From an uncultured Bacteroidota bacterium (lineage in GTDB: Bacteria; Bacteroidota; Ignavibacteria; Palsa-1295), in the NCBI GenBank assembly GCA_963702215.1, contig OY969726.1, forward strand, positions 3,288,609 through 3,352,608: a stretch of DNA of 64,000 bases. The letters are read 5' to 3'. Shown here piece by piece: positions 3,458-62,362 of the stretch (the first letter of the stretch is position 1; every line of letters begins with the position of its first letter). The notes under the pieces are model-generated. The model had not been told where the DNA came from, searched no databases, and was given only the letters and a program-made list of their open reading frames with translations. The translations under genes and the position numbers were made by a program.

Positions 3458-4509
3458 TTAGAATTGCTCCAGAAAGCGGTAGTCGTTCTCGTAAAAATCG
3501 CGGATGTCGGAGACGCCATAGCGCATCATCGCCGTCCGGTCGATGCCGAGACCAAATGCATATCCGGAATAAACCTCCGGATCGATGCCACTGGCCGAAA
3601 GCACATTCGGATGCACCATGCCGGAACCTAAAATTTCCAGCCAGCCGGAATACCTACACACGCGGCAGCCTTTACCGCCGCAGATGTAGCAGCTCACATC
3701 GACCTCCGCGCTGGGTTCCGTAAACGGAAAAAAACTCGGCCGCAAACGAATGCTTGCATCGCTTCCAAAAAATTGACGTGCAAAAGAAAGCAGCGCTCCT
3801 TTGAGATCGGCCATCGTGACCCCTTTATCTACCACCAAGCCTTCCAATTGGAAGAACGCCACCGCGCTCCGTGCGCTCGACGCCTCGTTGCGATAAACGC
3901 GACCTGGCATGATGGCGCGTATCGGCGGCGGCTGGCGCTCCATCAAGCGAATCTGTACCGGGGAAGTGTGCGTCCGAAGAAGAAGTGGCGGGGTTCCCGC
4001 GCCTGCCCCGAGCCAGCATCGGGCCGGACGAAAAAGGTATCCTGCATATCGCGCGCGGGGTGATCGGCTGGGAAATTCAGCTTTCCGAAATTATGCTCAT
4101 CGTCCTCGATTTCGGGGCCGTATTCGACGGCGAAACCCATACGCTCGAAAATGGCGACCATCTCGTTCATCGTCTGGATGATAGGATGCTCGTGGCCCGG
4201 CGCGACCGCCGGAACCGTTCGTGCGGGCATGGTGAGATCGAGGTGATGCCCGGCTGCGACATGCTGCCCGAGCGTGGCTTCCTTTTCGGCAAACCGTTCC
4301 TCGACCGCTTGCCGAAGCAAGTTCAGTTCTTTCCCGGCCAGTGGCTTTTCGTCTTTGGGAACCGAACGTAAGTCATCGAAGAGAGCCGCGATCGTTCCCT
4401 TGCGCACCAAATGTGCGGCCTTGAAGGCTTCGAGATCGGCTGCATCGGCAATCGCATCCAAATCCGCGAGCAGCCTTTCTCGGATGATAGAAAGTTCGTT
4501 GAGAGTCAT
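3458..4509 (-). CDS. pheS: phenylalanine--tRNA ligase alpha subunit, split into two ORFs by a single frameshift
   Basis: ORF 3943..4509 is the PheS N-terminal half (...[16 protein letters not shown]). ORF 3458..3946 is the C-terminal half ([12 protein letters not shown]...[11 protein letters not shown]...GMVHPNVL). The reading frame of the second ORF extends upstream as [27 protein letters not shown], so there is a +/-1 indel near 3985..4010 in a GC-rich stretch. Confidence 0.85.
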
Positions 4510-4544
4510 CGGGAATAGAACGCCAGCGAACGATAAATCGCGCC

Positions 4545-58946: not shown

Positions 58947-61900
58947 CTACTTCTGGATAATAAACTTCCTCGCGCTTCGGTAATTACCGGCGGTCATGCG
59001 GAGGAGGTAGGCGCCATTCGGCAAGCTTGACGCGGCGAGCGACGCGGTGTAATAGCCCGGCAGCTTCGTATCGCTTACGAGTGTGGCAACGATTGTTCCT
59101 TCGGCATCGGCAACGTCGATCGTGACTGGAACGTTCTCATCGGTGCTGGATGATCGGTCATCCACCAGCCCGATGTCATACGAGACGGTCACATTTCGAT
59201 TGGCGGGATTGGGGGTTGGGTTCCCGAGCATCATATCGGTCGGGAAGGCCGGTTGTTCTTCGAAGATACTGCGTATCGCAAGCGGGATCGACCTGCGCGT
59301 ATCCGCTATCGTAAATATGATCGGCACACGCGGATTGGACGAGCGAATTATCGAATATAATGTCAAACCGAATCGGGAACCCCTTTTTGAACGTCTGCGG
59401 GTCCGCGCCGGCGAGATTCGGTTGGAACTTTAGATAGAGGAGCGGCTCGCCGAATGGCGCGGGTGTTGCCGTTGGCCCCCCGCCCGTGATCGGGGTAACG
59501 GGGCCGGATATACCTTCACCGCCTTGCTCGCAGAGGATCGTGTCGCGGCCCGGCGGCGAGGATGCAAAAATCGCCGGATACGTCGAGGTTGGCGTCAGGG
59601 TCTGGTTCGTGATGACATCGACGAGCCTCAGGTTCAGCGAATCGTAATACACATGAAGCTGGTAGCCGCTCGGGGAAAACGGCGTTAAATCCGTTTTGGC
59701 ATAGATGGGTACCAGGAACGAATTATCGAGCGCGTACGCATGGACGTTCAGCTGAGCGGCGAGTTCGAGCGTAAGCTTATCGCCCGTCCCGGAAAGTTGC
59801 ACGGTATCCGGCGGTGTGTTTTTGGGAAGACTGAAGGAAAGAATCGCCATCGCATGCTTCACGCCTCGGCCGGTGGGAAGGAAACTTACCTGGATGGTTC
59901 CCGTCTGTCGCGCGGGGATCACGAGCGGCGTTTGCGTGGCCACGGCGAAGTCGGTTGCATCGGCTCCGGCGATGACGGCATTCGTTACCGTGACCGGCAA
60001 ATCGTTCGGATTCACGATGGGTACATTGAAGAAGGAATCGTCACAGACCATCGTCGTGCCCCATCCAACGGTATCGACCGCGGTCGAGAGCGGGGAAATG
60101 GTTTCGACTCGGCCCACGAGGTAAACTTTGTGCGAGCTCGAAAGAGATGAGATGGTGATCGAGTCGAGATAGGGTCCATTCCCCTGCCCGAACGGCAGGA
60201 ACCGGAGTCCCACACGGGCGGAACCGGAGGGCGGTTCCCCTATCGTGAACGGAAGGGTGGCGGTCGCGCCTCAATAGATGACTCCCGTCTGTGTAAAGAC
60301 GGGCGTGCTCGGTCCGGTAATGGAGTTGACCGTCATTGTAGCGGTTCCCGCATTGCCGACATATACCTCGGAATCGACCGAAGCGTCGCTCTTCGTGAAG
60401 GTTCCGAAGTCGATGGTATCGACGGTAACGGTCTTATTCGTATCGCTGAAGACACCCATATCGTCGGACACGCCTCGGCCATAGACATCCACCACGTAGG
60501 CGCGAAGATGGTCGGTGCTCGCGGTAATCTGGGTGTGCATCCGCCGATTCACTTCATGGGGCCAGAATTCGATCGTCATCGCCCCGGTCTCTCCCGGTTT
60601 GATCGTGTAAGCGGCGGTCGGCGAACATACGGGGTCAATCACATGGAATCGATCCGTATCCTGGATGCGGCGAGGAAATCCATAGATATTTACGGTATCC
60701 TCCGATATATTCTGAAGATAGACGGTCGTATCGAATGTGCCGCTCGGATACCCGTAATTATTGGTCGGCTGCGTCTCCGCGGTGGTAAGCTCCCGGTCTC
60801 CAAAATCAATGACCAGCCCGACGGTCTTTAGCGGCGTGATCGTTTTGAGCGATGTGCCGCCGGTATAGGCGTAGCTATCGACGGGCCCCAGCGCATAGAC
60901 GGTTATCCCAAAGGGCTTAGCGCCATAAATATTGTGGGTTCCCTGCGCGAGCAGTTGGTGCTGCGCATAAACGAAGCGCGAATTGGGGATTGGCTTGAAT
61001 TCGCTCGCATTCATAGGCTGGCCATCCAGCACCATCGTATTGATCGAACTGGCATCCGCGACGATATTCACAAAATTACCCGTGAACGCATCGGCATTGA
61101 CGACGCTGACGAATGTGTACGCCGTATCGTATTGCTCGACGGGATACACCAGCGCGAGCGCGGGGTCGCCATAGGCCAGGGGTTCGCCCGGCCGAGGCTG
61201 CAGGACACCATAGCTCGTGTGCATGTACTGCCCAACCTGAATTGGGTTCGAAGCCTGAATCGAGGTGACGCCCGAAAGCTGTGTAATCTCGTAAAAATCT
61301 CCGGCATTGAATGTCTGGCCCACATCCACGCCATTAACAGAGATGCGTGTGCCGTCCTCGGCGCAGATCGCCCGAACCAGGTCCGGCCTTGCGGAAGTGG
61401 CGAAGGGGACGACAAGCGCCGAATCGCCCCATGCGCTTACGGGCGGCAATTGCTCGACCAATAAGTCGCGACTCACTTCTCCATCCTTGTTCGCCGCGCC
61501 ATTCGGAATTTCCGTCCGCTTATGACCGCTTAATACCGCAATGGGATAATCGGATTCGATCAGGCTGCCGGTAAGATCGTTCGCACCATGCGTAGGGTCC
61601 CCCTGGACGAGATAGACATCGCCCGCGTTCATGCGTACTTGAACCGCGGAGTTGGCGGGTGTTCCGATCGAGGACGTTGCCTTGAGCGTGACGGTTACGT
61701 TCGTCGAATCGTGCGTGGCGACGATCACGAATTCGCCGGGTGTATCGCCGTCGCCGCGAGGATAGGCTTCAGGTTCGGAACGTTTGATAATTGATGGTCC
61801 GGTATTCGGTTCCAAGCACGTTGACGGGCAGCGCCATGAATGCATCGCTCGAATATTGTTTGTGATTCATGCCAAACACCGCGATTGCGCTATCGCTCGT

Positions 61901-62362
61901 GATATGAACCGCCATGCCATGCACAACTTGCTGATCGGCCGATTCCGGCAAGAGCACGCTAGGCCCATTAAAATTGGAGGGTAGGACGATGGTCGTAATT
62001 TGCCCGGGCGTGGTGTTGAAGGTTTGATAAAAGTTCAACGCGGGAATATCGACTTCGCCGCGAGCGGCAACGCGACTTGTCAGGTAGAGTGCATCCATAT
62101 TGTAGGATTCGTCACCGCTGCCTTCGTTCGGGAAAAACGCGACGTAAAACTCAGTGCCGAGGTTATTGCGGTTTGTGACTTGCGCGACGCTCCGCCGGGG
62201 ATGAACGATCATCCCGGCCACACAAAGTGAGGCGAAGAGCAATAGAATTGCGAACCTGCGATTCACGAGAAGCCGTGGGAAAATAAGAATGAGAAACCGA
62301 TGCGCCTCGGAGAATGATGACCCGTTCACCGCGCACCCTGGATAGAACCCCGGAAAACTCAA
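58947..62362 (-). pseudogene. large T9SS cargo protein (IgGFc-binding-like N-terminal domain, then repeats, then a T9SS C-terminal domain), disrupted by two frameshifts and one in-frame TGA
   Basis: Four consecutive - strand ORFs cover it: 61769..62362 (signal, then GTEFYVAFFPNEG...LGTEYRTINY), 60271..61845 (...PGEFVIVATHDSTNVTVTL...), 59176..60213 (in the same frame as the previous ORF, separated only by the TGA at 60271..60273) and 58947..59366 (T9SS C-terminal domain GNPTPNPANRNVTVSYDIGL...AYLLRMTAGNYRSARKFIIQK). Confidence 0.6.

Follow-up and report, generated by a model that had tools for sequence, protein, structure and literature searches.

The 64-kb stretch of metagenomic DNA analysed here (the window) raises the question of whether its many interrupted genes reflect mutations of the organism or errors of the assembled sequence. 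The window lies within a single metagenomic contig of 3,581,381 bp (NCBI, ENA), in which the gene fragments are recorded as separate proteins. A preliminary description had listed eight genes, each covered by two ORFs in different frames, and each of the eight is indeed split in this manner. A further frameshift, the tenth, was found in nuoI, a gene absent from the earlier list. The total for the window is therefore 10 frameshifts and one in-frame TGA, distributed over 9 of about 46 genes (Table 1), or approximately one lesion per 6 kb. This load of disrupted genes is far above that of a normal bacterial genome, and pheS, leuS, nuoH and nuoI are among the genes affected.

Table 1. Interrupted genes of the window and the lesions located in them. 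Bases in square brackets are the extra bases.
Feature	Position	Strand	Lesion
pheS	3458..4509	-	split into ORFs 3943-4509 and 3458-3946; lesion at + strand 4002-4014 (CCTGCCCCGAGCC)
lipoprotein gene	12214..12700	+	extra A at 12403-12404, TTGG[A]ACCG
GH15 glucoamylase/glucodextranase	19832..22226	+	extra base at 20116-20117, GTTTA[T/C]AGAACG
zwf (glucose-6-phosphate dehydrogenase)	23128..24562	+	extra base in TTTCG[G/C]GAGG, 23306-23308
leuS	26456..29072	+	extra A at 27321-27322, CTTCGA[A]GATCG
nuoH	31947..32967	+	extra G at 32528, CGCGC[G]CCC
nuoI	32979..33495	+	extra base in CCCAAA[G]GCGCAGC, 33444-33448
Type IIG restriction-modification (RM) gene	45751..48760	-	extra G, sense strand GAG[G]GACC; on the + strand, CCC at 48036-48038
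T9SS cargo gene (IgGFc_binding + Por_Secre_tail)	58947..~62260	-	three lesions
cargo lesion 1 (site A)	+ strand 61779-61780		extra base, TCGG[A]ACG
cargo lesion 2	60271-60273		in-frame TGA; + strand TCAA
cargo lesion 3 (site B)	+ strand 59263-59264		extra A, CTTCGA[A]GAT

One single-base edit per lesion sufficed to restore a full-length ORF in 9 of the 9 genes, and the repaired products of the eight listed earlier are colinear with intact orthologues. A scan of codon usage by frame revealed same-strand frame switches at the lesion sites only. In six of the genes the coordinates of a Pfam profile run on across both ORFs: tRNA-synt_2d in pheS (3-73 in one ORF, 95-246 in the other), Glucodextran_N in the GH15 gene (1-90, then 127-259), G6PD_N in zwf (2-46, then 28-183), the editing domain in leuS (1-29, then 39-185), NADHdh in nuoH (1-184, then 171-298) and IgGFc_binding in the cargo gene (1-21, then 23-296), which also carries Por_Secre_tail. 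The lipoprotein, RM and cargo genes were left open by Pfam and were compared with orthologues. Such a comparison had been called for in the preliminary description, and every orthologue examined, for any of the genes, is a single unshifted ORF.

The intact 350-aa JGI orthologue of pheS (L082) aligns with a 2-nt gap at the lesion, and a display of the frames located a 13-residue stretch in the other frame. The repair is either the addition of one base in the C4/G4 run, meaning that one G is missing, or the removal of two bases; the repaired product is 350 aa long. In leuS, which is exactly 1 nt longer than its intact orthologue L087, the shift had been assigned to an A-homopolymer run at about 27334-27350. 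The extra base lies instead at a TCGA motif, some 15-20 nt upstream of the A-runs. In seven of eight LeuS orthologues IAG directly follows the conserved EI(D/E)F, and this corresponds to the second frame from ATC GCG GGC on. A close relative (L091) has GATTTCG-AGATCGCCGG at this site and reads TTCGAGATCGC, which is exactly the predicted uncorrupted sequence; a scan of GTDB species representatives yielded only relatives with a LeuS identity of at most 57% and no close genome. The repaired 477-aa Zwf aligns over residues 6-476 to PDB 9emm_A, with AFREEV at the junction opposite HFREQM and no break of frame.

After repair, the lipoprotein is 99% identical to the 161-aa protein P0156 at 100% coverage. 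Four further orthologues are 158-163 aa long; at the junction the orthologues read ADW-T-DVE, and the junction Thr agrees with the closest of them, P0157. In the GH15 gene the shift had been put at 20128-20136, and we find the extra base about 15 nt upstream of that interval: in the orthologues (798-829 aa) the motif Y-R-x-x-N-x-DP-(E/D/G)-x-RY corresponds to the second frame already from AGA ACG on. The repaired GH15 protein has 797 aa. The C-terminal fragment of the RM gene contains Eco57I, N6_Mtase and TaqI_C domains (Pfam), while homology of the N-terminal fragment stops at residue 244 of proteins of about 1000 aa. When repaired, the 1002-aa product aligns end to end with P0282 (residues 3-1002 to 5-995), and the junction reads RICEDRKIEQYG.

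The assembled nuoI ORF extends to 33590 and would encode 203 aa. In its cluster of 76 members (at least 90% identity), 14 of the 15 members listed have 171 aa and one has 183 aa, and the C-terminus of the cluster mates, a 16-residue stretch, was located in another frame of the window. Removal of one base gives a protein of 171 aa, of which 161 of 171 residues are identical to P0437. The most heavily affected gene is the T9SS cargo gene, for which two shifts plus an in-frame TGA had been described; tblastn of an intact orthologue confirmed this pattern, hitting three frames with one stop. The ORF at 56436-58904, which had been counted as part of this gene, is ComEC. An intact, syntenic cargo orthologue of 1075-1077 aa adjoins ComEC in relatives, over 80 orthologues, with lengths of about 1040-1140 aa, give 99-100% coverage, and the junction residues QTSEP and YLEEQPAF agree with them.

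If the lesions were errors, other assemblies of the same organism should lack them. Contigs from the Logan collection cover two of the 11 lesions, and at both they lack the extra base and carry an intact gene, with the reservation that these contigs are error-prone, may share read sets with the contig and do not amount to an accurate independent reference. For nuoH, contig L081 (ERR11523645; 99.7% identical over 2,656 bp) lacks G32528 and has an uninterrupted 335 codons up to the contig end. For the lipoprotein gene, L088 (ERR11594399) and L089 (ERR11523645), both 99.85% identical to the window, lack A12403 and encode the intact 161-aa P0156. A search for same-species data on the other nine lesions found none, nor any further same-species cluster mates for proteins near them; a 1080-aa chimeric query built from junction segments retrieved mostly homologues of LeuS and GH15, failed to recover P0156 and is thus unreliable. 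The Logan contigs carry frameshifts of their own at 31065, 31416, 13602 and 13785, where the window is intact, and therefore derive from noisy reads of the same population. At every indel disagreement between Logan and the window, a version with an intact ORF exists in one of the two sources; five of the six indels consist of a base missing from the Logan contig.

The local contexts of the lesions recur. The identical 10-mer CTTCGA[A]GAT (+ strand) is found in leuS and at cargo site B, and the insertion TCGA[A]GA recurs in L081 at 31416; GG[A]AC is common to the lipoprotein lesion and cargo site A. TCGA accounts for 6 of the 15 differences between Logan and the window, against a background of 4.6% (p = 3.5e-5), and G>A or C>T changes make up 7 of the 11 substitutions. 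At least three lesions of the window lie at or next to TCGA, among them leuS, cargo site B and possibly the in-frame TGA. Arg occurs at the TGA column in none of the cargo orthologues, so that this stop may have arisen by a change from TCGA to TCAA or in some other way. A second motif, GGWCC, was suggested by the fact that the lipoprotein and RM repairs both restore GGACCGA; it was set aside as a post hoc observation on two sites only.

Nine of the 10 frameshifts are due to a spurious extra base, an excess of insertions (binomial p = 0.011). Most of the extra bases copy a neighbouring base in runs of only 1-3 nt; most lesions do not lie in a homopolymer of at least 4 nt, and long homopolymers are not involved. 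The association of two shifts with homopolymers, proposed earlier, has to be corrected accordingly, and the leuS shift is outside the A-run. Downstream of each shift the remaining frame is fully open and conserved (559 aa in the case of LeuS), and the frames are 60-85% identical to orthologues. Each gene has a single lesion, with the sole exception of the 3.3-kb cargo gene, which has three. The tRNAs and the other housekeeping genes of the window are complete. Because the frames stay open and conserved, because the essential pheS and leuS are affected and because the tRNAs and housekeeping genes are complete, there is no sign of decay.

Taken together, these observations make it very probable that the lesions arose as errors in the consensus of a long-read metagenome assembly, most likely a nanopore one, and are not mutations of the organism. 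This agrees with the preliminary reading of systematic indel errors, which is supported by the two lesions missing in same-organism contigs, by the recurring contexts and by the leuS sequence of L091. We infer that the nine lesions outside the same-organism coverage are artefacts of the same kind, and we likewise infer the sequencing platform of the contig and of both ERR runs; a literature search by run accession gave no hits. Noisy reads would have been assembled into one 3.58-Mb contig, and roughly one wrong base in every 6 kb would have remained after the consensus or polishing step. Judged from the error pattern, TCGA appears to be methylated in the organism; miscalling of methylated TCGA could then have produced several of the lesions, namely those in leuS and at cargo site B, and possibly the in-frame TGA, where the + strand has TCAA and TCGA would be expected.

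Both parts of this proposal have precedents. Indels that fragment genes are known in long-read assemblies (PMC9262707; PMC12007338); in nanopore and PacBio CLR assemblies they split conserved genes into adjacent ORFs, are measured by IDEEL-type tests and are fixed by short-read or reference polishing. The window resembles these cases: it belongs to a long single-contig MAG, it has a lesion roughly every 6 kb, some of them in essential genes, and lesions are missing in other assemblies of the same organism. It differs from typical long-read indel errors in that most lesions lie outside long homopolymers and insertions make up 9 of the 10 frameshifts. For nanopore data, published basecalling errors linked to methylation include those at the Dcm motif CCWGG (PMC6591954), and an excess of G>A and A>G has been reported at bacterial methylation motifs (bioRxiv 10.64898/2026.01.14.699587). 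The likeness is that the differences cluster at a short palindrome, TCGA, and are mainly G>A, with three window lesions located there; unlike the published errors, among which substitutions predominate, two of the three lesions linked to TCGA in the window consist of a 1-nt insertion.

Could the lesions nevertheless be genuine? The deposited sequence does contain them, the affected accessory genes (RM, cargo, lipoprotein and GH15) could be dispensable, and a sister strain could in principle be the source of the Logan contigs. A very recent pseudogenisation, in which the organism or its dominant strain carries the lesions as in reductive decay, would resemble Mycobacterium leprae or recently host-restricted symbionts in its high share of genes with frameshifts or stops. 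In genomes of the M. leprae type, essential translation genes are intact, and pseudogenes have multiple lesions, have lost conservation and are reproducible across isolates. None of these traits holds in the window: pheS, leuS, nuoH and nuoI are hit, a second lesion is found in the cargo gene only, downstream frames are open and conserved, and two lesions are missing in contigs from two runs that are 99.7-99.9% identical. The identical 10-mer at two lesions and a Logan error site implies a systematic process and not independent mutation. Further, a deletion bias is generally described for bacterial mutation, which the 9:1 excess of insertions opposes. We therefore regard such pseudogenisation as very improbable. 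It is scarcely credible that a Kapabacteria-like population has really fixed these frameshifts, with broken pheS, leuS, nuoH, nuoI and zwf tolerated or recoded and the intact Logan versions representing a sister strain. A compromise would be that most lesions are artefacts and some accessory ones are real, for instance if the Type IIG RM gene were phase-variable or had been inactivated, or if the cargo gene were decaying. Phase variation and inactivation are common in RM genes, the cargo gene has the most lesions of any gene, and both genes lie outside independent same-species coverage. However, the RM shift lies only in GGG, within GAGGGACC, and not in a phase-variation tract (typically at least 8 nt), and GGG is too short for slipped-strand variation. 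The cargo gene is the longest target, so that three hits at about one per 6 kb are not extreme, and two of its lesions match the contexts of leuS (CTTCGA[A]GAT) and of the lipoprotein gene (GG[A]AC). This mixed origin is improbable.

Since the contig is metagenomic, coexisting strains might have been collapsed into a chimeric consensus, an artefact of microdiversity rather than of basecalling or polishing, and the few substitutions between Logan and the window outside TCGA would fit. Strain variants would not, however, be frameshifts in essential genes, and the differences are concentrated at one motif, are mostly G>A and recur in identical contexts; we consider strain collapse quite improbable. 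Programmed recoding, by +1/-1 frameshifting, transcriptional slippage or a TGA that is read through or reassigned, would account for essential genes that look frameshifted, as in prfB +1 frameshifting and the poly(A) slippage of endosymbionts. In those systems the sites are conserved in orthologues, with defined slippery or long homopolymer motifs. Apart from short A or G runs near some sites, nothing specific speaks for recoding here: all examined orthologues are unshifted at every site, without a conserved shift site and slippery motif, the lesions have no common slippery motif and lie in runs of 1-5 nt, and two shifts are missing in other assemblies of the same organism. As for reassignment, TGA ends 11 of 41 window genes and occurs in frame only once. 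The probability of recoding is practically negligible.

With consensus error as the preferred explanation, the finding should be read as a warning on the quality of the contig and not as biology. At about one gene-breaking error per 6 kb, roughly every fifth or sixth gene of the 3.58-Mb contig may wrongly appear split, truncated or extended, and gene calls from the contig should be relied on only once it has been polished again. After polishing, pseudogene counts, the metabolic reconstruction (complex I, the pentose-phosphate pathway and the aminoacyl-tRNA synthetases), the defence-system call (Type IIG RM) and novel short ORFs should be re-checked. Not every suspicious gene is broken: GDPD (36501-37301) was considered as a further frameshift and is one intact ORF, LysE (9721-10404) is likewise intact, and 14105-14962 and 14964-15785, considered as one split gene, are two genes, the second of which has its own signal peptide. 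The error pattern also offers a cheap lead, namely that the organism probably methylates TCGA. The remaining genes may contain hidden substitution errors at this motif; in conserved genes, residual TCGA>TCAA/TTGA substitutions were counted at 6 of 51, compared with 6 of 126 in the control.

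Eight genes of the window are split, as the preliminary description had claimed. At each locus at least two same-strand ORFs in different frames overlap or abut, and in six genes (pheS, GH15, zwf, leuS, nuoH and the T9SS cargo gene) the Pfam profile coordinates continue from ORF to ORF (see the table). The three genes left open by Pfam, encoding the lipoprotein, the Type IIG restriction-modification enzyme (RM) and the cargo protein, were settled by orthologue comparison. In every gene a full-length ORF is regained by a single-base edit per lesion, a lesion being a frameshift or the one in-frame TGA. 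Residues 6-476 of the repaired Zwf align to PDB 9emm_A and the junction is crossed without a frame break. Removal of one base from the lipoprotein gene yields a protein of 161 aa, which has 99% identity at 100% coverage to the protein derived from Logan contigs of the same organism and also matches four orthologues of 158-163 aa. When 1.84 billion representative proteins were searched with the RM N-terminal fragment, the top matches were mostly ~950-1150 aa long, and in the large majority of them homology stopped at residue 244; in the repaired protein (1002 aa), residues 3-1002 align with residues 5-995 of the homologue P0282, with RICEDRKIEQYG at the junction compared with RICEDRGIEQYG. For the cargo gene, relatives possess a single syntenic gene of 1075-1077 aa, flanked by ComEC and a second IgGFc_binding gene. 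In a tblastn search the matches to this orthologue were spread over three frames of the window and included a single in-frame stop, and the repaired protein is 99-100% covered by more than 80 orthologues of ~1040-1140 aa. The two shifts and the TGA proposed for this gene stand. The ORF at 56436-58904, which falls within the coordinates first given, is an intact ComEC. The comparison with orthologous loci that had been proposed as a check shows every related gene examined to be a single, unshifted ORF.

Lesions in the window and same-organism Logan contigs (+ strand coordinates; lesions placed from orthologue alignments and frame displays; inserted or alternative bases in brackets)
Feature	Window position	Context or source	Pfam match across ORFs, or identity
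pheS	4002-4014	G4 run; +1 base needed, or -2	tRNA-synt_2d 3-73, 95-246 (two ORFs)
lipoprotein	12403-12404	TTGG[A]ACCG	
GH15	20116-20117	GTTTA[T/C]AGAACG	Glucodextran_N 1-90, 127-259 (two ORFs)
zwf	23306-23308	TTTCG[G/C]GAGG	G6PD_N 2-46, 28-183 (two ORFs)
leuS	27321-27322	CTTCGA[A]GATCG	editing domain 1-29, 39-185 (two ORFs)
nuoH	32528	CGCGC[G]CCC	NADHdh 1-184, 171-298 (two ORFs)
nuoI	33444-33448	CCCAAA[G]GCG	
RM	48036-48038	sense GAG[G]GACC	
cargo site A	61779-61780	TCGG[A]ACG	IgGFc_binding 1-21, 23-296; Por_Secre_tail in third frame
cargo stop	60271-60273	TGA	
cargo site B	59263-59264	CTTCGA[A]GAT	
L081	30296-32952	ERR11523645, 2,656 bp	99.7%
L088	10644-14823	ERR11594399, 4,177 bp	99.85%
L089	10644-13335	ERR11523645, 2,691 bp	99.85%

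Two placements differ from those first given. The leuS shift does not lie in an A-homopolymer run: in seven of eight orthologues the conserved EI(D/E)F is followed directly by IAG, so that the second frame is already in use from ATC GCG GGC on, and the site in the close relative L091 is GATTTCG-AGATCGCCGG. The GH15 shift, previously assigned to 20128-20136, lies ~15 nt upstream according to the orthologue alignment. Nine of the ten shifts are mended by taking out a single base (binomial P = 0.011).

The list of lesions was extended by one gene. As assembled, nuoI (32979-33590, + strand) encodes 203 aa, whereas among the 15 mates listed from its 76-member cluster (≥90% identity) 14 have 171 aa and one has 183 aa. 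The C-terminus of the cluster members is present in the window in another frame, and with one base removed nuoI encodes 171 aa, 161 of which are identical to those of the homologue P0437. A frame scan based on codon usage, with the window's long ORFs as training set, found same-strand frame switches at the listed sites only and missed this tenth frameshift near the end of its gene; lesions near gene ends, for instance in hypothetical genes, may therefore be under-counted. The tally is 10 frameshifts and one nonsense codon in 9 of ~46 protein genes. The three tRNAs and the other housekeeping genes (gnd, ddl, fmt, cmk and the rarA-like and sufS-like genes) are intact from end to end. Two further candidates, GDPD and LysE, also proved intact, and 14105-14962 and 14964-15785, considered as one split gene, are two genes, the second with its own signal peptide.

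The Logan contigs provide a direct test at two sites. L081 lacks G32528, and nuoH is open for 335 codons to the end of the contig. L088 and L089 both lack A12403 and carry an intact lipoprotein gene, with Thr at the junction as in the closest orthologue, P0157. The Logan contigs cannot serve as an accurate standard, for they have indels of their own: those at 31065, 31416, 13602 and 13785 disrupt nuoG and a T9SS gene, both of which are uninterrupted in the window. Gene-breaking indels in both sources imply that error-prone reads underlie both. For each indel on which they differ, one of the two has the version with an intact ORF, and in five of the six indels separating them it is the Logan contig that lacks bases. 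It is very unlikely that chance Logan indels restored both frame and orthologous residues at the nuoH and lipoprotein sites, because there are ~4 unrelated indels in 9.5 kb, and they would have had to fall in two zones of ~20 nt. L088 and L089, from different runs, begin at exactly 10644, which suggests a common assembly break point just upstream; inspection of the sequence around this position for a cause revealed nothing obvious.

With the window lesions left out, 15 differences between the Logan contigs and the window were scored. Six are within 1 nt of TCGA, compared with a background of 4.6% (P = 3.5e-5). G>A or C>T, with TCGA>TCAA as the typical case, accounts for 7 of the 11 substitutions. 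Such errors have been described in nanopore reads at bacterial methylation motifs (PMC6591954; bioRxiv 10.64898/2026.01.14.699587). This clustering at TCGA, mostly as G>A, suggests that TCGA is methylated in this organism and that ERR11523645 and ERR11594399 are nanopore data. With 599 occurrences against 470 expected under a first-order Markov model, TCGA is in excess in the window. Among conserved genes, candidate residual TCGA>TCAA/TTGA substitutions showed no clear excess (6 of 51, against 6 of 126 in the control).

The 10-mer CTTCGAAGAT is common to leuS and cargo site B, with the extra A right after TCGA, and L081 carries the same TCGA[A]GA insertion at 31416, a site that is free of it in the window. 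A recurring context of this kind is expected of a systematic basecalling or polishing error and not of independent mutations. CTTCGA[A]GA(T/A) thus occurs at 27316-27325 and 59258-59267 (window frameshifts) and at 31411-31420 (Logan frameshift). About 10 further TTCGAAGA sites lie within intact ORFs of the window, so that the error is favoured by context but is not deterministic. On the + strand the TGA of the cargo gene appears as TCAA, which a single G>A change would produce from TCGA (CGA, Arg), but none of the orthologues carries Arg in this column. GG[A]AC is shared by the lipoprotein and cargo site A lesions. The repaired lipoprotein (12399-12410) and RM (48028-48043) sequences, on opposite strands, both read GGACCGA, which contains GGWCC; with two sites, GGWCC is a tentative candidate for another methylated or error-prone motif. 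An over-correcting polishing step might, we would guess, account for the excess of insertions in the window.

Real pseudogenisation is contradicted by the presence of essential genes among those broken, the perfect preservation of the frames past each shift, the lack of two lesions in other contigs of the same organism and the return of identical sequence contexts. Programmed frameshifting or slippage is contradicted as well: the orthologues are unshifted at every site and there is no slippery or long homopolymer motif. Reassignment of TGA was rejected since this codon terminates 11 of 41 genes, and phase variation of RM since its tract is only G3. A mixed situation, with some accessory-gene lesions real, appears unlikely, as these lesions have the same contexts as those in essential genes or those tested directly.

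The absence of two lesions from same-organism contigs, the repeated contexts and the one-base repairs together support the original reading of systematic indel errors. NCBI and ENA records place the window proteins on one contig of 3,581,381 bp and list the gene fragments as separate proteins; so large a single contig from a metagenome points to long reads. Fragmentation of genes by indels in long-read assemblies is documented (PMC9262707; PMC12007338), and the frameshifts are supported as an assembly artefact of this well-documented kind. The artefact is of little biological interest, yet it bears on every other call from this contig. Cluster mates and best matches are named Candidatus Kapabacteria or Kapaibacterium, and no GTDB species representative is closer than 57% LeuS identity.

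Some other features of the window deserve mention. At ~47925-47960 the RM ORF (- strand) contains an in-frame hairpin that resembles a terminator (CTCCCCCGCC-TTTTCAA-GGCGGGGGA), with a G6 run after it. The hairpin falls where the protein has an insertion of 12 aa compared with P0282, the closest homologue. The adjoining region, 44108-45751, has low GC (~49%), only small ORFs without Pfam matches and a weak coding signal; it might have been left by a mobile element or a defence island. The ORF at 62418-63995, the last of seven grouped here as T9SS cargo genes, has no Pfam match and corresponds by synteny to the second large IgGFc_binding gene of the relatives. T9SS cargo genes are unusually dense, the Por_Secre_tail C-terminal sorting domain being present in the other six ORFs, at 6092-8863, 12649-14073, 14964-15785, 33508-35427, 42195-44108 and 58947-62260.
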